In this document: positions 20,001 through 37,591 of the stretch, in pieces
Layout of the letters: every line of letters starts with the position of its first letter
Position numbering within the stretch: the first letter of the stretch is position 1
Source of the DNA: Candidatus Aenigmatarchaeota archaeon
GTDB taxonomy: Archaea; Aenigmatarchaeota; Aenigmatarchaeia; QMZP01
Direction of reading: 5' to 3'
DNA length: 49,982 nt
Assembly: GCA_017609225.1 (NCBI GenBank)
Contig: JAFCEK010000001.1
Coordinates: 1-49,982, forward strand
Made by a program: the position numbers and the translations under genes
The notes under the pieces: model-generated
What the model saw: the letters and a program-made list of their open reading frames with translations, nothing else
Database searches by the model: none
Told to the model about the DNA's origin: nothing

Positions 20001-21426
20001 ATTCTCTGAAACAGTAAAGGCATCAAGTGCAGCCAGCACTGCAGTCATAACAACACTCATGGGCATATGCGAAATAATGGGTAAGGTAATACAGCTCAGA
20101 ATAAATATGAAGGAAACAGAGATTGACTTTATAAGAATGGAAACATGCATCGAGGTTTACCAGCACCAGATGGACACGGGAATGTGTGACAGGAATGCTG
20201 AGGGCTGCTTTAATGCAATAGCAGGCTGCATAGAGTTCGGGGAAATTAATAGTTTCATAAACAGCGCACAGAGCATAGGCAGGGATATAAACTCCCAGGT
20301 ACAGCGGATTGGAAACGCATGGAGAAATGTGGGAGAAACAGTTGAAGGCCTTTCATTCGGAGCCCAGGGAGAAGGTGCAATAAGCTTCACATGCTCTCCT
20401 GGAGGCAGCTACTGTTGCGGCTATGTACCAAGAACAACAACAGGCGCAGGGCAGAACCAGTACCAGCTTCAGACAGTCAGCCTGACTATGGCCAGTCTGA
20501 AAAACTGTGAGAGGCCAAGCATAAAGATATACTCAAAGAAGGACTGGCTGGCAAGCTCCGATGTATGCAAATCAGCAAGCGGCAGGGCAGATGATGAGGC
20601 AGAAACAGCAGCAAACCAGATATGCATTGAAGCTGGTACAGGGTGCAATGTTGACAGGAAGACCATAAGCAGGCATGACAGGGTTTTTGAATGCAAGTAT
20701 CTGCTAAAGGAAGGCGACAACGGATACGATGAAAATGTAAAGATGCAGTGCGAGGCAAAATCAGCATATGCGAATCAGGCAGGAAAAGAAAAAGCCAATA
20801 AAATATGTGAAAGCGAGGGCGGTTCAGGCTGCAAGGCAAAGGCAACCTTCTGGGGTGAGAATGAATTTAAATGTGTATCCTCAGAAACAGGATTCAAGGA
20901 AATAACATCTTCTTACAGGGGAACCACAAAGGAGCTGTTCGGACCGCAGATGTTTGGCCAGTCAGACCAGGATTCGGGAAATGATGAATATGCCTTTGTT
21001 CTGGCATGTGATGGCGTGGACACAGACACATCCCAAACAGTGAAGTACTGCCTGGGAACACCGCAGGCAGGATGCGGAACAGGCTCTCCATGCGCTGCTG
21101 TCCGCCCGGAATGGGAAGACATGGCTCCAAAATCACCTGCAGGCACAATAACACCAACAGCAACACCTGTTGATACCCCAACAACATTCAGCGTCCAAAC
21201 AGACGCATCAGTTGTTTCTTTTGTATGGCTTATAAACGGCAGAGAATTGCGTAGAGGCAGAACATATGATGATGATAATTATGGCTACAGGGTATTGGAT
21301 ATAACCAGCGATGGAAGATTGATAATTGAATTCACAAAACCAAACAGATACCCGCTTGAATCGCGCATAACAGATGACAGCGGAAACATTGGCTACATAA
21401 CAGAATGGATAGATGTTTCACCCTGA
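17032..21426 (+). CDS. Giant (1464 aa) modular Cys-rich surface protein with an internal hydrophobic segment
   Basis: Sec signal (LLLMLPVTSA). Four tandem modules of roughly 150 aa, three of which start CG-x-x-x-CE...CC-x-DC-x-C while the second starts with the variant CECAGGYYC. TM-like LIALTIVMVIGTIVAGVIGA at 19921-19980. Cys-rich C-terminal region and a PKD-like end. Confidence 0.85.
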   Translation: MDIKHLALEIFAVAVSYLLLMLPVTSATSVNIFFNGIQQDTTDISPGNLVSKEINVYHDADDITWTNIKVLVTLSSASLSHSIKKIYLYKCKTLSPSACIQGTPQVFDSWIDTELSWNDISQSEGVGVYPQTANLMFLVKLEDFNGKASWVGFWDTIRRIDYNIFNHYSYPLNEIEFHAKSLDMIEPIKTYIENYQMIPFNWAEKVVFRMANILYGVGANEQEIEQTPPFFDGAQTSTNQVTSIGKDYYFVLSNITSGITNPVTMRLNPSFTCGNGQCETDLGETTSTCCYDCGCAADFYCDMSDEQNPETGACRSLTEITVDVTSTSMADITDCSQNQQLTITAQINNAPSNLPATLTGYIKLNETQYNVPCQSSIPGIYECTVNLQPEVRCGDGSYVLGPNEINFTIPFNDGPDMITETIGTEFSDITVNYNCECAGGYYCDSGLRMCKPEGQIALVIINVTSYMDNYNPAGDNIGIYATINNPPSDMSITGSSYVLGNITFDGSSSPGSSGSVTCDESNNIYYCSIPLFIQNYDHSRQYIVNGNSLSFTISFSDGGNSITKTLTTGFSDIIVPSYRCGDTTCNAEENSDNCCLDCGCPNPDDYCDRVYGCVNENNITMVIDTITPENLTDCKIPHVLNIKARILNAPSDLVLNYYYYLQNDEIKGWNLLCMESPPGSNMGIFECQLAVPPIDDCSLPYYTLGNNKLRFSVSFPNGLTQVLTKTLEAEFQDINIVPTYHCGDNICEYDLNESGSVCCIDCICGSDPDFGSEYYCDYDPQLNPNGTCLPKNNITLVIDKPMAVVHFTSCEKANTVNIKAHVENQPSGMIVENIFGIFNGETAEYISCTPEMGIITTPNYTGPVEWNSYNCSLIVPAEQQCSQGQTYTYSNNSLSFFISYTNGLGKRETQILTQPYPDVTITQNIRTLYDIMQDAISRMKGKLQETITLMEDLIKMWEDCLDMLIALTIVMVIGTIVAGVIGAKTGGTEGFSETVKASSAASTAVITTLMGICEIMGKVIQLRINMKETEIDFIRMETCIEVYQHQMDTGMCDRNAEGCFNAIAGCIEFGEINSFINSAQSIGRDINSQVQRIGNAWRNVGETVEGLSFGAQGEGAISFTCSPGGSYCCGYVPRTTTGAGQNQYQLQTVSLTMASLKNCERPSIKIYSKKDWLASSDVCKSASGRADDEAETAANQICIEAGTGCNVDRKTISRHDRVFECKYLLKEGDNGYDENVKMQCEAKSAYANQAGKEKANKICESEGGSGCKAKATFWGENEFKCVSSETGFKEITSSYRGTTKELFGPQMFGQSDQDSGNDEYAFVLACDGVDTDTSQTVKYCLGTPQAGCGTGSPCAAVRPEWEDMAPKSPAGTITPTATPVDTPTTFSVQTDASVVSFVWLINGRELRRGRTYDDDNYGYRVLDITSDGRLIIEFTKPNRYPLESRITDDSGNIGYITEWIDVSP

Positions 21427-21455
21427 TTTTTATTTCCTTCTGCCTAATTATTTAT

Positions 21456-23006
21456 ATGAAATTAGCACCTGCACTTTTCCTTGCTTTTGCAATAGTTATG
21501 CTGTTTTCCCCTGTGTCAGCCCTGAGGATTAATGATAATCTTTATTTCACAATAAGCAATGACAGCGTAAAATGTGTTGATATTTTTCTGCCTGATGATG
21601 CAGGGGTTTTTGACCTGGGGCTTTTCGAGTATGTTATAACAAGCACAAGCCCATGGGGCGACCTGACAGAGCAGATAGTGAGAACAGATGAGAACAATAC
21701 AGTACTGATACCAATATGCTTTTTTGGCTCAGAATGGCCAGAGTGCCAGTGCTCAAACCATACAATCACCATATCAGTGCCTTCGCTTGGGATAAGCAAA
21801 ACCTTCAGAGGCGGGGTTTGCGTATCCAGCATAGAGGATGTTGATATTGTGGATGATGCCGGGGGGCAGACACCGGACCAGGTTCTTAACACCAACATGG
21901 ACATGTTCAGTATAGGATTTCAGATGCCAGTTCAGCATGCAGCTCCGGGGGAAACCGTTACATACAGGCTGTTTGCCGAGTCGCAGGCGGATATAGTGCT
22001 TGACATAATATTTGAAAATTCAGAATTATCAGTAATACCTGCCCAGGCGCAGGCAGAGCTGGACAGCTCAAACCCCTTTGAACTCTTTGACTTTAATGTT
22101 ACAGCCCCAAGCCAGGCAGGAAGCTATACGTTTACAATAACTGCTGCAGCCAGGGACTGCACAGGAAATTTCTGCACAAAAAAAGCCAGAGGAACGCTTA
22201 ATGTTGGAGGCACACCCTCCGCAGGATTTTCTGTAAATCTGTTCCCAAAAAACCTTAATGTCAGGGAGCTTACATCTGTTAGATATGAATTTTCAATCCA
22301 GAACTTTGGTGAACCGGAAAACTTTACCATAACAGGAAACATACCACAGAATCTTGCCACAGATTTCCGGGAAACAACCCTGTTTGTAGGGTCCAAAAAA
22401 ATAAAAAGCATAAAATTTTCTGTTACGCCTGCTGCATCCTCAAGCCTTTATGAGATAACAATATCCGCCACTGGCTCCGGAAACAACACAAAGCATGCCA
22501 CTGCATACCTTTCCACAAATGAAATGCTGACAGACCCGCAGAGGTATGCAAACAGCATAACAGGAAGCACAGACAACAGAAGCATTATAAACAATGTGAA
22601 CAACGCAATGAACAGCTGGCAGAATTCATACAGCTCAAACACATATGGAGCGGATACAGGGCAGTACAGCAGCCTGCAGGAAACCCTTGGCATTGCACAA
22701 TCCTCACTTAAGTCATCCCAGGAGCAGCCAGCGGGAATATGCACCCCAGGCAAAAAGCAGTGTTATGGTATGCTCCTTCAGGAATGCAGGCAGGACGGCT
22801 CAGGCTGGGAAACCCTTGAAACATGCGATTATGGATGCGATAATACACTGCATGCATGCATACAGGACAGTGGAGGGCAGCCATCTGCAGGTTTTGACTA
22901 CATATGGATTATTGTTATAGCTGTCATTGCTGCAGCAGCCATTGGCTTTATTTTTTACAGAAAAAAATCAGGCGGCCTGGAGGCCGAGCTTGAACAGGAG
23001 TTTTGA
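21456..23006 (+). CDS. Surface protein (about 516 aa) with Sec signal, C-terminal Cys module, TM anchor and acidic tail
   Basis: MKLAPALFLAFAIVMLFSPVSA. The C-terminal CTPGKKQCYGMLLQECRQDGSGWETLETCDYGC module is shared with the 2150-aa protein. TM YIWIIVIAVIAAAAIGFIF. The ATG at 21456 avoids overlap with the upstream stop at 21426. Confidence 0.8.
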   Translation: MKLAPALFLAFAIVMLFSPVSALRINDNLYFTISNDSVKCVDIFLPDDAGVFDLGLFEYVITSTSPWGDLTEQIVRTDENNTVLIPICFFGSEWPECQCSNHTITISVPSLGISKTFRGGVCVSSIEDVDIVDDAGGQTPDQVLNTNMDMFSIGFQMPVQHAAPGETVTYRLFAESQADIVLDIIFENSELSVIPAQAQAELDSSNPFELFDFNVTAPSQAGSYTFTITAAARDCTGNFCTKKARGTLNVGGTPSAGFSVNLFPKNLNVRELTSVRYEFSIQNFGEPENFTITGNIPQNLATDFRETTLFVGSKKIKSIKFSVTPAASSSLYEITISATGSGNNTKHATAYLSTNEMLTDPQRYANSITGSTDNRSIINNVNNAMNSWQNSYSSNTYGADTGQYSSLQETLGIAQSSLKSSQEQPAGICTPGKKQCYGMLLQECRQDGSGWETLETCDYGCDNTLHACIQDSGGQPSAGFDYIWIIVIAVIAAAAIGFIFYRKKSGGLEAELEQEF

Positions 23007-23019
23007 GTCTTAATTTTAT

Positions 23020-23130
23020 GCTGAACCAGAAAACCATTGTTTTCAAACAGCGGATGTATGGTTCTGGTTCAACAGCTGTTGCCTCGCCAAGAAAACCGCC
23101 GACTTTAGTCAGCGGATATACGGAGGCAAC
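23020..23130 (+). repeat. MITE-like two-hairpin repeat, copy 2 (intergenic, between convergent genes)
   Basis: Same ~110-bp sequence as the other three copies. Flanked by TTTAT and ATTAT. Confidence 0.85.
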
Positions 23131-23146
23131 ATTATATTAGTCTGAC

Positions 23147-24922
23147 TCAGAATTCTTCTTCGCTTCCAGCATCATCCTCAAACTCTTCTTCCCCGGCAGA
23201 TTCCTTTCCACTGCCAAGACCATGTTTTTTGAGAAATTTGAATGCTACAAAAACAACCACCAGCACCACAACAACTATTATAACAAGAGTGAAATCAAAA
23301 CCCCCGCCTGCACTAACAGGCTGCACTGCAGCCCCAAGAGCAATAACATTCTGAAGAAGACTGAATTTTGCGCTGGCAGAGTCATAGTATTCTTTTGCCC
23401 GGGTATAATCACTGTCTTTATATGAATCTGCAGAGCTTATATCGCTGTCTATGTCATCCAATATATAATAAAACAGGTTTTCCTGATCCAAACTAAGATT
23501 CATTCTGAAGCTGGAAAATTCCTGCTGCAGTGAATCTACATCGCCTGAAATATCCTGGAAAAATTCAGCGCTTACAACTATATTTGCTGTTCCAGCACCT
23601 GTATCTATCTCAATTGTGCCGCTGTATCTTCCGGGGCTGGGAGTTGAAAGCGAAACATTCACTATTCCTGAGCTGCCTGGTGCTATGGAATTTGGCAAAA
23701 CCACAGAAGCTATTGAGCCTATTGTTCCAGTGGCTGAATAACTAATGTTATCCATTGTGCTGTTTCCAAGGTTTGAGAGCGTGAATGTTCTGTAAATTGT
23801 TTCTCCAACTGTGCTGGTTTCAATCCATGTTGAAGGTGAAATGCTCAGGTCACCAGACACGCAGGCAGGGCAGTCCCCACCAGCGCTCCCATCACACTCA
23901 TTCATAACGCTTATGGTTATGTTTACAGGTATCCTGCCTATCACAGTTCCGTTTGAAACAATATCTGCCTGGGTTCCTATCTCCATGCTGTTTTGTATGT
24001 TGTTCAGGTTTACAGTAAAGTAAATAGTCCCTTTTCCTTCTATTGTGCTGTTGCCCAGGGTTATGCTGAGATATGGTGAAAGCGCAGATATTATGCTGGT
24101 TGACAGGTCTGCTATGCTCTCATTGCCAAGATTTCTTATCCTGAATCCTCCCTGCGAAAAGCTCTGTCCTTTTGTAACCATAACATCCAGGGAAACAGCA
24201 TCTATCTCCAGGTCAGCAGGCACATATGCCCCACCGGTTTCTTCACCTTTAATTACAAATCTTACCAGGTCACCGCCAAAGCTTGTTCCTCCGCTGTTTT
24301 GAGCGGCGAATGCCATGTAGTACTCGCCGGGCCCCAGGCTTATATTGCCTATGTAACCTCTTATGGGAGTATAATAAACCAGGCTGCCTGACTTTTCAGG
24401 CAGAAGGTCTATGCTGCTGTTGTATGTTTTGTAGCTTACACCTGTAACCCCTGTATCAGACCATACTGTTATATCAACCATGCCATTATTATTTGTTGTT
24501 ATGTTTATGGTAAGCTCTATATCACCTGCATTTACAGTGTCCTGAAATCCGCTTTCCTGACCATAGGCATCGCTAATGTTTACAGAGAATGTATAAGGTA
24601 TAAATGTTTCAGAGCCCTGATATTTTGATGCATAGAAGGGCGTGGGACCGCATGTGCTCTTTTCATCTGTATTTGAAAAATAGCAAACCCACCTGTTTCC
24701 GGACCTTGGAAACGAGCCAAAACCATCTGCTATGCCAAAAACCTGCCATCTTACCCTTATGGACTTGGAATATTCCCCCGGATCTGCTACTGCAATAAAG
24801 CTTGCGTTTGCGGAGAATTTTTCAGGGATAAATGTTACTATGGGGTCGGGAAGCGCCTGCACATTAACCAAAACCAGTGCAAAAACCAGAAACCCGGCTG
24901 CCAGCCCCGCACATATTTTCAT
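23147..24922 (-). CDS. Surface protein (591 aa) with Sec signal, beta-rich repeats, C-terminal TM and acidic tail
   Basis: MKICAGLAAGFLVFALVLVNVQA. C-terminal FDFTLVIIVVVVLVVVFVAFKF followed by KKHG...EEEFEDDAGSEEEF. Confidence 0.8.
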   Translation of the reverse strand: MKICAGLAAGFLVFALVLVNVQALPDPIVTFIPEKFSANASFIAVADPGEYSKSIRVRWQVFGIADGFGSFPRSGNRWVCYFSNTDEKSTCGPTPFYASKYQGSETFIPYTFSVNISDAYGQESGFQDTVNAGDIELTINITTNNNGMVDITVWSDTGVTGVSYKTYNSSIDLLPEKSGSLVYYTPIRGYIGNISLGPGEYYMAFAAQNSGGTSFGGDLVRFVIKGEETGGAYVPADLEIDAVSLDVMVTKGQSFSQGGFRIRNLGNESIADLSTSIISALSPYLSITLGNSTIEGKGTIYFTVNLNNIQNSMEIGTQADIVSNGTVIGRIPVNITISVMNECDGSAGGDCPACVSGDLSISPSTWIETSTVGETIYRTFTLSNLGNSTMDNISYSATGTIGSIASVVLPNSIAPGSSGIVNVSLSTPSPGRYSGTIEIDTGAGTANIVVSAEFFQDISGDVDSLQQEFSSFRMNLSLDQENLFYYILDDIDSDISSADSYKDSDYTRAKEYYDSASAKFSLLQNVIALGAAVQPVSAGGGFDFTLVIIVVVVLVVVFVAFKFLKKHGLGSGKESAGEEEFEDDAGSEEEF

Positions 24923-25667: not shown

Positions 25668-27365
25668 TTATTTCAGGCATGCCTCAAGAAATCCCCTGAA
25701 AACAGGACTTGGATTCAGCGGCTTTGATGTGAATTCAGGATGGAACTGTGTTGCCAGAAAGAATTTATGCCCCGGAATTTCAAGAATCTGCATTATTCTT
25801 TTCTCTGGTGCATAGCCTGAAAAAACCAGACCATTCTTCTCAAGCAAATCTATATATTTTGTGTTAACATTCCATCTGTGCCTGAACCTTTCCCTGATTT
25901 TTGTTTTTCCGTAAAGCCTGTGCGCAAGCGTGTTTTCCCTGACAACAAGGTCAAGACCACCCAGCCTCATGGTTCCTCCAAGGCCCTCAATCTCCTCCTG
26001 TTCGGGAAGTATGCATATCACAGGCTCCTTTGTTTTCGGCTCAATCTCTGTTGAGTTTGCATCTTTCAGGCCGCATACATTTCTTGCAAACTCTAAAACA
26101 GCCATCTGGAAGCCAAAGCAAAGCCCGAGAAACGGCATATTGTTTTCCCTTGCATATTTTATGCAGAGTATTTTTCCCTCGGAGCCCCTGGAGCCAAAGC
26201 CTCCGGGAACTATTATGCCGTCAAGGCCATGAAGCGATTTTTCCGCATCCTCCGGGCTTTTTATATCAGGGGTTTCTATCCAGCTTATTTTTGCCTTTGC
26301 GAGCAGATAAGGAGCGGTGTGTTCCAGCGCCTTGAGAATGGAGATATATGAATCATGAACTGTTGTGTACTTGCCTGTTATCCCGATTGCTATTTCTTTT
26401 CTGCTTTTCCTTATCCTTTCTACGAGCCTTTCCCATTTCCTGAACTCTGTATTTTCCCTTCTTGCCTTCAGATCAAGAACATCCAGCACTATCCTGTCCA
26501 CGCCTATGTCTTTCAGTATAACAGGAATCTCATGTATGTTATCAGCATTCCTTGCATCTATAACCCTTGAAACAGGTATGTTGGAATGTATGCTTATCTT
26601 CTCCTTTATATTCTCATTTATAGGGTTCTCGCTTCTGCACACAACTATATCAGGCTGTATCCCAAGACCCATAAGCGTTCTGAGGCCAAGCTGGGCAGCC
26701 TTGCTTTTCTGCTCCCCAAGGCTTTCAGGCTCCAGGATGTATACAACATTTATGAAGCATACATTTTTCTTTCCCTCCTCGTATGCAAGCTCTCTCATTG
26801 CCTCCAGAAAATATGAATTTTCAATATCGCCAACCGTTCCCCCAACCTCAACCAGAACTATGTCAGCCCTGCTTTTCAGTGCAAGATTCCTGAGGAACCC
26901 CTTTATCTCCCCTGTTACATGGGGAATGAACTGCACATCCCTTCCGAGATATTTTCCCTTTCTCTCCTTGTCTATTATGTTTTTAAAAATCTTTCCTGCT
27001 GTCAGATAGTTGTCTTTTGACAGGTTTTTTTTTTTTTTTTTCTCATATGTTCCCAGGTCAAGGTCGCACTCTGTCCCATCATCCAGAACAAACACCTCAC
27101 CATGCCTGTACGGATTCAGCGTTCCCGCATCATAGTTCAGGTAGCCGTCAAACTTTACAGGCGAAACCCTGAAGCCATGCCGCAGGGCAAGCAGTGCCCC
27201 AAGGCAGGAAGTGAATGTTCCCTTTCCAACACCAGAAATAACAGAGCCTGTTACAACAATAAATTTTGTTTTTCCTGGTTTGTAGCCTTTTGGTATATTG
27301 ATATAGAATTCAGTTTCATTTGTTTTCCTTGCAAGTTTTTCAAGCTCATTCTGCATTATACACAA
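25668..27365 (-). CDS. pyrG: CTP synthase
   Basis: Synthetase domain (VVTGSVISGVGKG) and glutamine amidotransferase domain (GLCFGFQMAV, ATQFHPEF). It contains an in-frame A17 run (KKKKK) and an N-terminal extension of about 30 aa. Confidence 0.92.
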   Translation of the reverse strand: MCIMQNELEKLARKTNETEFYINIPKGYKPGKTKFIVVTGSVISGVGKGTFTSCLGALLALRHGFRVSPVKFDGYLNYDAGTLNPYRHGEVFVLDDGTECDLDLGTYEKKKKKNLSKDNYLTAGKIFKNIIDKERKGKYLGRDVQFIPHVTGEIKGFLRNLALKSRADIVLVEVGGTVGDIENSYFLEAMRELAYEEGKKNVCFINVVYILEPESLGEQKSKAAQLGLRTLMGLGIQPDIVVCRSENPINENIKEKISIHSNIPVSRVIDARNADNIHEIPVILKDIGVDRIVLDVLDLKARRENTEFRKWERLVERIRKSRKEIAIGITGKYTTVHDSYISILKALEHTAPYLLAKAKISWIETPDIKSPEDAEKSLHGLDGIIVPGGFGSRGSEGKILCIKYARENNMPFLGLCFGFQMAVLEFARNVCGLKDANSTEIEPKTKEPVICILPEQEEIEGLGGTMRLGGLDLVVRENTLAHRLYGKTKIRERFRHRWNVNTKYIDLLEKNGLVFSGYAPEKRIMQILEIPGHKFFLATQFHPEFTSKPLNPSPVFRGFLEACLK

Positions 27366-27380
27366 CCCCTGTTAAATTAT

Positions 27381-27490
27381 GTTGAACCAGAAAACCATTG
27401 TTTTCAAACAGTGGATGTATGGCTTTGGTTCAACAGCTGTTGCCTCGCCAAGAAAACCGCCGACTTTAGTCGCGGATATACGGAGGCAAC
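27381..27490 (+). repeat. MITE-like two-hairpin repeat, copy 3 (just upstream of the pyrG start, antisense to it)
   Basis: Flanked on both sides by ATTAT (27376-27380 and 27491-27495). Confidence 0.85.
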
Positions 27491-27574
27491 ATTATGAACT
27501 ATGATATATTGTATGAAAGAAGAATAAAAACCTTTGGTAACATCAGTTTTTATTCTAATTCTGTAAATTAGAGG

Positions 27575-28012
27575 CTACCTGCCGTTTCTCACAAAGCTTT
27601 TCAGCTGTTTCTGGCCTTTCCATTCATTGTATTCGTTTTTTATCTTGAACTTTTTAACCAGCTCCCTGTTCCTGTCAACATCAACAATAAAATTTCCTGT
27701 AAGTATGTCTCTGCCTATAATTATGGGAAATGTCATATGCGACCTGTCCTGCAGATTGACCTCTGCATCAAATTTTCTGCCCTTTATTTTTATCTTCCCT
27801 GAAACCACAGGCCTGTAAATCCTTGCCTTGATTGAGGGGTTTTTGATTTTTGTTGTTCTGACAACAGGACCAAGCTTTGCCCTTGAGGCAAGCTTTGTGT
27901 CAACAGAGGTAAAGCTGGCCCCTGTATCAAAAAGCGCGTATGTTTTCACTGTTTTTTCCCCTATGAGTTCTATTTTCTCCACAAGCCCTATAACCCTTTT
28001 TTTCCTGACCAT
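27575..28012 (-). CDS. Retropepsin-like aspartic protease domain protein
   Basis: YALFDTGASFTSV contains the D-T-G-A aspartic protease signature. The 145-aa size fits single-domain retropepsin-like archaeal proteins. Confidence 0.6.
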   Translation of the reverse strand: MVRKKRVIGLVEKIELIGEKTVKTYALFDTGASFTSVDTKLASRAKLGPVVRTTKIKNPSIKARIYRPVVSGKIKIKGRKFDAEVNLQDRSHMTFPIIIGRDILTGNFIVDVDRNRELVKKFKIKNEYNEWKGQKQLKSFVRNGR

Positions 28013-37045: not shown

Positions 37046-37183
37046 ATGTACAGGTGTCTTAACTGCGGAAAGCAGGTAGAGCTGGACTTAAAGACAGCCA
37101 AAAAAGTAATCTGCCCCTACTGCGGCTACAGGATTCTGAAAAAGGAAAGGCCAAAGGTAATAAAAAAGGTAAGGGCAATATAA
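37046..37183 (+). CDS. rpoP: DNA-directed RNA polymerase subunit P (Rpo12), 45 aa
   Basis: Not in the ORF track. Manual translation gives MYRCLNCGKQVELDLKTAKKVICPYCGYRILKKERPKVIKKVRAI*. It has a CxxC...CxxC zinc ribbon and the typical KERP...VKAx tail. It sits in the conserved position after rpl37ae. Confidence 0.85.
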   Translation: MYRCLNCGKQVELDLKTAKKVICPYCGYRILKKERPKVIKKVRAI

Positions 37184-37184
37184 T

Positions 37185-37294
37185 GTTGCCTCCGTATATC
37201 CGCCTACTAAAGTCGGCGGTTTTCTTGGCGAGGCAACAGCTGTTGAACCAGAACCATACATCCACTGTTTGAAAACAATGGTTTTCTGGTTCAG
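37185..37294 (-). repeat. MITE-like two-hairpin repeat, copy 4 (inverted; between the rpoP stop and pfdB)
   Basis: The reverse complement matches copies 1-3. It begins 2 nt after the rpoP TAA and runs up to the truncated N-terminus of pfdB. Confidence 0.85.
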
Positions 37295-37321
37295 GCATAC
37301 CAGCAGCAGATACAGGGCCTG

Positions 37322-37591
37322 ATGGCGCAGAAGGAAGCGCTAAATATGCAGCTCATGGAAATAAGAAAAGCCCTTGAGGAGCTGGAAAAAACAAAAGAAA
37401 AAGAGGTTTACAGGCTTTCGGGTCCCATTCTGATAAAATCAACAAAGGCGGAAGTAAAAAGCATGCTTAAGGACAAAGAAGAGCTTATAAACATGAAAAT
37501 AAAAACCCTGGAAAAGGGAGAAAAAAAGATGAAAGGAAAGATTGAAGAGCTCAGAGACAAACTCACAAAAAATGATTCAGATGCAGGCTAG
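37322..37591 (+). CDS. pfdB: Prefoldin beta subunit (N-terminally short)
   Basis: MAQKEALNMQLMEIRKALEELEK...VYRLSGPILIKSTKAEV...coiled coil. The in-frame upstream codons AYQQQIQGL continue the expected prefoldin N-terminal helix but run into the repeat with no start codon. Confidence 0.8.
   Translation: MAQKEALNMQLMEIRKALEELEKTKEKEVYRLSGPILIKSTKAEVKSMLKDKEELINMKIKTLEKGEKKMKGKIEELRDKLTKNDSDAG

Follow-up and report, generated by a model that had tools for sequence, protein, structure and literature searches.

A family of two-hairpin repeats next to TTAT in an aenigmatarchaeal genome, most likely non-autonomous derivatives of IS200/IS605 elements

The stretch of DNA analysed here, hereafter the window, comprises 49,982 nucleotides (positions 1 to 49,982 of contig JAFCEK010000001.1, assembly GCA_017609225.1, from a Candidatus Aenigmatarchaeota archaeon) and carries four copies of a short repeat made of two hairpins. 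This repeat is most likely a non-autonomous derivative of insertion sequences (IS) of the IS200/IS605 family, comparable with the palindrome-associated transposable elements (PATEs), and would be moved as single-stranded DNA by a Y1 transposase, TnpA. The proposal is based on the architecture of the repeat, its specificity for the tetranucleotide TTAT, the homology of its modules, the match between guide and cleavage sequences, the restoration of one gene upon removal of a copy and the patchy distribution of the family among relatives. A preliminary description had likened the repeat to a MITE (miniature inverted-repeat transposable element). The repeat is indeed mobile and non-coding; its reading as a MITE with terminal inverted repeats and a target-site duplication is, however, not supported, given its direct hairpin repeats, a sister subfamily that follows TTAT but ends in TGAT, and its ends of IS200/IS605 type.

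The window is contig C32 of the genome designated G000, a fragmented metagenome-assembled genome (880 kb in 79 contigs, 78% complete, 41.6% G+C). This is a strongly reduced, DPANN-type genome, in which archaeal genes encode aCPSF1/FttA, exosome RNase PH subunits, prefoldin and an RpoP-like open reading frame (ORF); the genomes of its relatives measure 0.5-1.9 Mb. The four copies lie where they had first been placed, and a 28-nt core has 4 exact matches in the window versus 0 expected in 100 shuffles. The repeat is not confined to these four sites, since a BLASTN search of the G000 assembly with the consensus detected 37 full copies. The limits of the copies were set by flank-inclusive alignment and by comparison with all copies in G000, which confirmed the start of copy 2 at 23020 and moved its end from 23130 to 23135, 5 nt further 3′. 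The features of the window are as follows.

1458-1565, + strand: copy 1, truncated, the terminal 8 nt (AACATTAT) being absent
23016-23019, + strand: TTAT, target and predicted left cleavage tetranucleotide of copy 2, in the flank, outside the element
23020-23135, + strand: copy 2, complete, 116 nt, covariance-model score 146.7 bits
23020-23073, + strand: unit 1 (left end) of copy 2, with outer stem 23020-23029 / 23064-23073
23030-23033, + strand: putative guide AAAA of unit 1, copy 2
23034-23042 / 23045-23053, + strand: inner imperfect palindrome of unit 1 (IP1), copy 2, with loop TC
23054-23061, + strand: 3′ extension of unit 1, ATGTATGG, copy 2
23078-23135, + strand: unit 2 (right end) of copy 2, with outer stem 23078-23085 / 23123-23130
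23092-23095, + strand: putative guide AAAA of unit 2, copy 2
23096-23103 / 23108-23115, + strand: inner palindrome of unit 2 (IP2), copy 2, with loop TTTA
23132-23135, + strand: TTAT, predicted element-borne right cleavage site of copy 2
27381-27495, + strand: copy 3, complete, with a 1-nt deletion in IP2; its target TTAT is at 27377-27380
37180-37296, - strand: copy 4, right end intact, left flank atypical (GGTAT plus an extra C)

The two halves of the element are built alike. Directly after the flanking TTAT, the consensus of unit 1 reads G-TTGAACCAG-AAAA-CCATTGTTT-TC-AAACAGTGG-ATGTATGG-TT-CTGGTTCAA-C, then AGCT; unit 2 follows as G-TTGCCTC-GCCAAG-AAAA-CCGCCGAC-TTTA-GTCGGCGG-ATATACG-GAGGCAA-C-A-TTAT, where the element ends. 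In each half, an outer stem is followed by a stretch with AAAA at its end, by an imperfect inner palindrome and by AT, and in both the order is GTTG-stem, (C)CA(A)GAAAA, inner palindrome, (G)GAT(G/A)TA and stem-CAAC. The direct alignment of unit 1 with unit 2 scores 36, as compared with 8.9 on average and 28 at most for shuffled sequences, 0 of 2000 of which reach 36. Judging from this alignment, the two halves are direct homologous repeats and not inverted termini.

The two hairpins proposed from the start proved to be real: as single-stranded DNA the consensus folds with -33.4 kcal/mol (z = -7.9 versus shuffles), and the opposite strand folds equally well. Within hairpin 2, the inner stem, previously singled out for its differences between copies, has in its 3′ arm the most variable part of the element, with the forms GTAGGCGG, GTCAGCGG, GTCGCGG, GTCGGCGG and GTGGGCGG. 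Covariation was assessed on an alignment of the G000 copies with the diverged copies of G015, a genome of a different genus of the same family. RNAalifold applied to the MAFFT alignment returned the outer stems only, because the inner hairpins were misaligned, and the structure was then supplied by hand. The structure-preserving changes for which the preliminary description had suggested a test were found, with nine pairs doubly changed, 91% of cells paired and 0 of 500 shuffles reaching the covariation score; in slid-register controls, 26-50% of cells were paired. IP1 displays compensatory changes in 5 of its 9 pairs between genomes. In the copies of genome G045, the outer stem of unit 1 changes from GTTGAACCAG/CTGGTTCAAC to ATTGAAAACA/TGTTTTCAAT; since this covariation takes in the first base of the element, the left boundary is placed directly after TTAT.

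TTAT lies directly 5′ of 35 of the 37 full copies (flank logo T32/T31/A32/T32 of 33) and of all nine full-length G045 copies examined, the base preceding it being variable. Intact right ends all terminate in TTAT as well, the exceptions being the truncated copy 1 and the first unit of a tandem in contig C75, and no repeat extends beyond TTAT on the right. The (T/A)TTAT flanks noticed earlier are real, but their reading as a 4-5 bp target-site duplication is not supported: constancy of TTAT in 35 of 37 copies points to a fixed site as opposed to a variable duplication. The two exceptions on the left are copy 4 and C35:9249-9366 (flank AGAT). They were considered as evidence that the right TTAT is element-borne, an argument that was dropped, copy 4 being a secondary deletion. 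More informative is a sister subfamily of shared architecture, represented in related genera by four loci (L111 and L115 in G044, L144 in G045 and L107 in G071). Its right guide is CAAA and its terminus TGAT at all four loci, after which the sequences diverge, while the left flank is TTAT at three of the four. This combination, as read from the aligned loci, argues against target duplication, and we take the left TTAT to be a fixed target and the right TTAT to be a cleavage site borne by the element.

The tetranucleotides at both ends are those that an IS608-like guide would predict. In IS608, the guide lies 5′ of the hairpin foot, and guides (G) and cleavage sites (C) at the left (L) and right (R) ends form the pairs GL AAAG/CL TTAC and GR GAAT/CR TCAA, together with A+16:T-3 and A+17:T-4 (PMC3201880, PMC5934647). 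The left site is outside the element and the right site inside, and insertion takes place 3′ of the target without duplication (PMC3201880, PMC5934647). From these pairs we drew the rule that a guide G1G2G3G4 specifies the site comp(G2)comp(G1)-x-comp(G4), where comp denotes the complement. AAAA then specifies TTxT, and TTAT is found at both ends in G000 and G045; CAAA specifies the TGAT of the sister subfamily. The G000 copies also share with IS608 an AT that directly follows each foot on the 3′ side.

Traces of movement are preserved at two loci. Contig C10 contains a copy (C10:4013-4132) that interrupts a PQQ-type beta-propeller gene. When it is removed in silico and one TTAT is kept, a continuous open frame of 409 aa results, with a Pfam beta-propeller match of 7.5e-64 whose best stretch (residues 72-269) spans the junction at residue 113. 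An archaeal bulge-helix-bulge intron, defined by a 4-bp helix between two 3-nt bulges at the boundaries, was considered by inspection and set aside: the ends can pair as a continuous 6-bp helix (AUGUUG/CAACAU) with no bulges, and the element is not sense-oriented to the gene interrupted in C10. A nested insertion is seen in contig C13, where the terminal TTAT of an older copy, a terminal-only one, is followed without a gap on its 3′ side by a copy of a long variant.

The distribution among relatives is patchy. A covariance-model survey found the family in 6 of 91 genomes of the order, belonging to four taxonomic families, with 39 matches in G000, 12 in G015, 10 in G045, 6 in G044, 5 in G026 and 1 in G071; within genus g18, one member has none and two others have 6 and 10. 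An exact 20-nt core, searched in all species-representative genomes, matched G015 and gave three chance bacterial matches, and there was no match to it in viral contigs. In a metagenome scan with the neighbouring CTP synthase, the best match had 58% identity, so that no orthologous intergenic DNA was available, and an exact-protein look-up of a neighbouring gene gave no match on record. The number of full copies, their patchy occurrence in relatives and the insertions in genes bear out the earlier view of a mobile multi-copy element as opposed to a single-copy RNA gene.

Full copies in G000 have a mean pairwise identity of 93.8% (range 86-99%), and none of the 35 compared are identical. In the long variant (~194 nt), which is present at C79:1213-1406 and at six contig ends, inner hairpin 1 is followed by a further hairpin module of 85 nt; a short variant of ~100 nt with a reduced unit 2 occurs at C4:8995-9089, C4:10899-10993 and C40:15734-15807. 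There are, in addition, terminal-only derivatives of 49-52 nt that arose by internal deletion, and one copy that consists of unit 1 only. Long, short and terminal-only derivatives included, G000 has about 50 loci, a minimum because 9 of 158 contig ends lie within a copy or at most 150 nt from one; the family limits the assembly and its copy number is underestimated. In G000:C75:1290-1486, a second copy, beginning at element position 35, is attached to a full one, an arrangement that represents either a tandem partial duplication or recombination between copies.

Autonomous elements with related ends were found in part. Y1_Tnp (PF01797) has matches at three places in G000, and OrfB_IS605 has no match there. 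One of these places, C63:4300-4720, is a frameshifted tnpA with the element's module upstream (C63:4134-4220; GGAAGAAAC-CTGCTGTCT-TC-AGACAGTAG-ATGAATTCC) and a truncated right end. The other relevant element is located on contig C22 of G020, a genome of a related genus, and carries tnpA (Y1_Tnp 5e-42) and tnpB (OrfB_IS605 1e-25, TNB 1e-20) in divergent orientation. Its left end reads TTTAT directly followed by ACGGAACAGA-GCCACAG-AGAAGA-CCACCGTTT-TT-AAACAGTGG-ATGAA-CTGTGGC; written undivided, the core after AGAAGA is CCACCGTTTTTAAACAGTGG, then ATGAA. According to BLASTN, this end is 86% identical to element positions 12-40 (29 nt). The G020 element and the dead one at G000:C63:4134-4770 have in common with our repeat a left module composed of an outer stem, AGAAGA/GAAAC, a palindrome ...GTTT-(TT/TC)-AAACAG... 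and ATGAA, and the G020 copy, whose left end has the outer stem too, lies 3′ of TTTAT. Unlike the repeat, both carry tnpA, and the G020 element also tnpB. The search for an IS with matching termini, as first suggested, thus succeeded for the left ends of both elements and not for their right ends, which differ from the right unit of the repeat (guide GAAG, predicted site TCAC) or are truncated. On present sequence comparisons, neither is proven to be the parent.

Similarity to the right unit is seen elsewhere: the ends of IS200/IS605 elements in G015 have C-rich palindromes with a TTTA loop, then ATGAA, like unit 2. When the covariance model of the element was run unfiltered over 19 tnpA loci, it gave weak hits (E 0.008-0.9), mostly no more than ~160 nt from tnpA, and the hits beside tnpA were on the strand that left and right ends should occupy. 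Candidates for an autonomous copy in G015 were discarded: the longer forms in C17 and C34 are non-coding variants of ~200 nt, and the copy at the end of C62 was ruled out, being interrupted by another IS. This last copy (G015:C62:6190-6329, L060) has its inner hairpin 1 interrupted by the end of a CCACCAGT-type IS200 element. The tnpA/tnpB element of G020:C22 (L084, reverse strand 100-2030) is situated between two tRNA genes, the downstream one of which has apparent intron-like inserts. An IS200-like element with CCACCAGTG-type hairpins extends over two overlapping contigs of G000 (C54:6500-7084 and C50:1-210) and includes a 57-bp tandem duplication between its left hairpin and tnpA; the same type of IS is present in G015 (L080, L083).

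Transposition of the repeat could be envisaged as follows. A Y1 (HUH) TnpA acting in trans would bind, on the top strand in its single-stranded state, to both inner imperfect palindromes. The AAAA located 5′ of each palindrome would pair with TTAT and thereby set the cleavage sites, one being the TTAT of the left flank and the other the TTAT with which the element ends. The element would be peeled out as a single-stranded circle, the donor being resealed with one TTAT, and the circle would be pasted 3′ of another TTAT without target duplication. Since TTAT/ATAA overlap stop codons (TAA) and spacers are AT-rich, surviving copies would pile up in short spacers and occasionally hit genes. We infer, mostly by analogy with IS608, that TnpA is the catalyst, that the intermediate is single-stranded and which TnpA would be responsible.

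Long ORFs start or end 3-45 nt from most copies, which practically constitute the spacer. In tandem gene contexts, the element is in sense orientation in five cases and in antisense orientation in six, which gives no suggestion of a strand-specific RNA role. In the window, two copies had been reported to sit in or against genes, and such positions were confirmed. Copy 1 interrupts a conserved nucleoside-deoxyribosyltransferase-like gene, of which 1146-1457 precede it and a native C-terminal remnant follows at ~1566-1627, and the other three occupy spacers. Copy 2 separates convergent ORFs, 11 nt past the stop of 21405-23006 and 12 nt before the stop of 23147-24922. Copy 3 is antisense to both of its neighbours, ~24 nt upstream of the start of the CTP synthase gene (25668-27356, - strand) and 80 nt downstream of where ORF 27575-28012 (- strand) stops. 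Copy 4 is between the rpoP-like ORF (37046-37183, + strand) and the gene for prefoldin beta (37322-37591, + strand). The recurring peptide dismissed as fake in the preliminary description is indeed an artefact of ORFs running through a non-coding element, whose 116 nt leave no room for a transposase gene, and the window is, as stated there, devoid of a transposase.

Two of these insertions were followed by deletions. In copy 1, a deletion from the element's right end, at a GGAGG microhomology, took AACATTAT and ~22 codons; deoxyribosyltransferase-like orthologues run ...FAFY-EKKKIFLLNPIP...VINGNLDLIK, and the G000 frame resumes with ...EEIESVSPVILNGNLDLVK and the stop. In copy 4, a deletion from the element's left end took the original target, hence the atypical left flank, and ~17 N-terminal codons of prefoldin beta. 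The gene for this protein is present in all 21 genomes searched (G000 and 20 relatives), and the 15-18 residues (M...QAQL) that precede YQQQ in five of five orthologues are absent in G000, where the first in-frame ATG (gene region 37297-37591 of the window, + strand) is at 37322. To judge by this comparison, prefoldin beta is probably N-terminally truncated in G000. On the other side of copy 4, the TAA stop of the RpoP-like zinc-ribbon ORF (which ends in ...CPYCGYRILKKERPKVIKKVRAI) lies in the copy's terminal ATTAT, on the opposite strand; the target was evidently the ATA-TAA end of this ORF, whose stop is now supplied by the element's terminal TTAT. Outside the window, a copy at C53:18984-19102 (- strand) is in sense orientation inside a 23S rRNA gene (C53:15637-19639, - strand), the only one found in this assembly. 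This gene spans 4003 nt, as compared with the 2987 positions of the model, and contains ~1 kb of insertions, of which the copy is one; it sits in the AT-rich loop of a GACGGCTT/AAGCCGTC hairpin.

Several observations weigh against an IS200/IS605 origin. Within G000 alone, TTAT on both sides would fit a strict 4-bp duplication equally well, the case against duplication resting on the four loci of the sister subfamily, and the termini have a complementarity of 6 nt (ATGTTG/CAACAT). The outer stems, if formed in single-stranded DNA, would keep TTAT from the guide, and they are absent in IS608. Some decayed copies of G015 and G044 depart from the guide rule, whose other exceptions need G-T wobble. 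As regards the enzyme, the sole intact TnpA of G000 (134 aa, Pfam 1e-24, full length), obtained by joining the end of C54 with the start of C50, belongs to a different element, as its CCACCAGTG hairpins and its guide AATT differ; no intact cognate TnpA was found in the 78%-complete G000, the cognate-looking C63 being a pseudogene with a truncated right end. It may be that the family is still moving, or is kept, without a working cognate transposase, either by cross-mobilisation through the TnpA of an IS200 with unrelated hairpins or by virtue of a host-level role of the nested-stem hairpins. We consider this unlikely. A host role would concern, for example, RNA processing or the tolerance of the sense copy in the 23S gene, and the covarying outer stems, lacking in IS608-type ends, would then be the functional novelty.

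Explanations outside the IS200/IS605 family appear considerably weaker. It is very improbable that the repeat is a classical MITE, i.e. a deletion derivative of an IS with a DDE transposase, bearing terminal inverted repeats and flanked by a 4-bp TTAT (or TA) duplication. TTAT flanks nearly all G000 copies on both sides, the ends show the short complementarity ATGTTG...CAACAT and the genome contains a DDE_Tnp_1 fragment, all as a MITE would have it; however, the termini share ~6 nt only, the halves are direct repeats, TTAT on the left is combined with TGAT on the right in the sister subfamily, and the hairpin modules resemble IS200/IS605 ends. The DDE_Tnp_1 fragment (IS4/IS5-type; C18:923-1213, - strand), the sole match in G000, is moreover a pseudogene with an internal stop on a contig without similarity to the element, and neither DDE_3 (IS630) nor rve transposases were found. 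This reading has largely been refuted already.

The strong fold with its compensatory changes, the copies hard against gene ends and the sense copy inside the 23S rRNA gene could also be taken as signs of structured small-RNA genes, or of a cis-acting RNA such as a terminator, stabiliser or processing site, that spread secondarily. We give this a very slim chance. A known RNA family, the finding of which had been named as an objection to a mobile element, was looked for in the window, and none in Rfam 15 matched at the gathering score; a search at a permissive E value returned psRNA14 only, at chance level (26 bits versus a threshold of 60, E = 0.45). Orientation relative to flanking genes shows no preference, copies break genes and both strands fold alike, while the TTAT target, the guide/cleavage logic and the homology with transposon ends account for the covariation at the DNA level. 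Scarcely probable, too, is a repeat akin to REP sequences (repetitive extragenic palindromes) and their paired forms (REPINs), kept by a single-copy domesticated Y1 transposase (REP-associated tyrosine transposase, RAYT), for which the Y1 transposase homologues in the genome, the many copies of extragenic palindromes and the fair homogeneity of copies whose cognate IS is apparently dead could be invoked. REPINs are composed of a pair of inverted REPs headed by GTAG or CGTC (PMC3337134, PMC3733652). Here, the units are direct and have no GTAG or CGTC head, and the Y1 genes sit in IS-like units with hairpins of their own and are not flanked by the repeat; furthermore, RAYTs have been described in bacteria.

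An IS200/IS605 derivative of this kind has consequences for the reading of the genome. A burst of about 50 such mini-elements is possible even in a strongly reduced genome of DPANN type; here they make up roughly 0.6% of the DNA and fill many very short intergenic spacers. For annotation, ORFs through the element have to be regarded as artefacts, and conserved genes are broken or truncated (prefoldin beta, the deoxyribosyltransferase-like gene, the PQQ-type beta-propeller), with one copy in the 23S rRNA gene. The two subfamilies offer a natural covariation test of the guide/cleavage code of TnpA, AAAA going with TTAT and CAAA with TGAT. IS200/IS605 has been described as the most widespread IS family in archaea (PMC13343696). 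The same survey of archaeal IS does not name the present lineage and mentions MITEs once, in passing; among the 12 papers ranked highest in a full-text search on Aenigmarchaeota and IS605, transposase or MITE, none treats it. Elements of this kind are already known from haloarchaea and bacteria, so that a new lineage and a variant architecture are added, and no new principle.

The ends of IS608 and ISDra2 and their peel-and-paste movement by TnpA are treated by He 2011 (PMC3201880) and Morero 2018 (PMC5934647), and reportedly by Barabas 2008. The repeat agrees with these elements in that both of its ends have subterminal imperfect palindromes of the same orientation and in that a putative 4-nt guide on the immediate 5′ side of the hairpin foot predicts the cleavage tetranucleotide. 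It also shares with them a left site outside and a right site inside, and insertion 3′ of the target; its long variant has a second hairpin 3′ of the left palindrome, as they do. Contrary to IS608, it has neither tnpA nor tnpB and possesses outer stems. The spacing between cleavage site and foot also differs, being 14 nt on the left and 16 nt on the right in the element versus 19 and 10 nt in IS608. The departure from textbook ends lies in a covarying outer stem for each module and in identical left and right cleavage sites.

The closest counterparts are the PATEs of Haloquadratum walsbyi, described as non-autonomous elements related to transposons of the IS605 type (Dyall-Smith et al. 2011, PMC3119063). 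Their families are homogeneous, with more than 90% identity and core-deletion forms of ~52 bp, and their hosts have few intact genes for an IS200-type TnpA, or none (PMC3119063). The repeat studied here likewise has palindromes close to its termini, similar to one another and to their counterparts in IS605-type elements, is without inverted terminal repeats of the MITE type, and combines a short conserved targeting oligonucleotide with a conserved 3′-terminal one. PATEs make no target duplication, and the sister subfamily argues against one in the repeat as well. It also forms a homogeneous family with terminal-only derivatives of ~50 bp, insertions of element into element and few or no intact TnpA genes. 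Its host is not a haloarchaeon but a DPANN-type organism with a genome of ~1 Mb; each palindrome is nested in an extra, covarying outer stem, one tetranucleotide (TTAT) serves as left target and as right terminus, and the sequences are unrelated to those of the H. walsbyi elements. These differences notwithstanding, the description of PATEs fits the element feature by feature.

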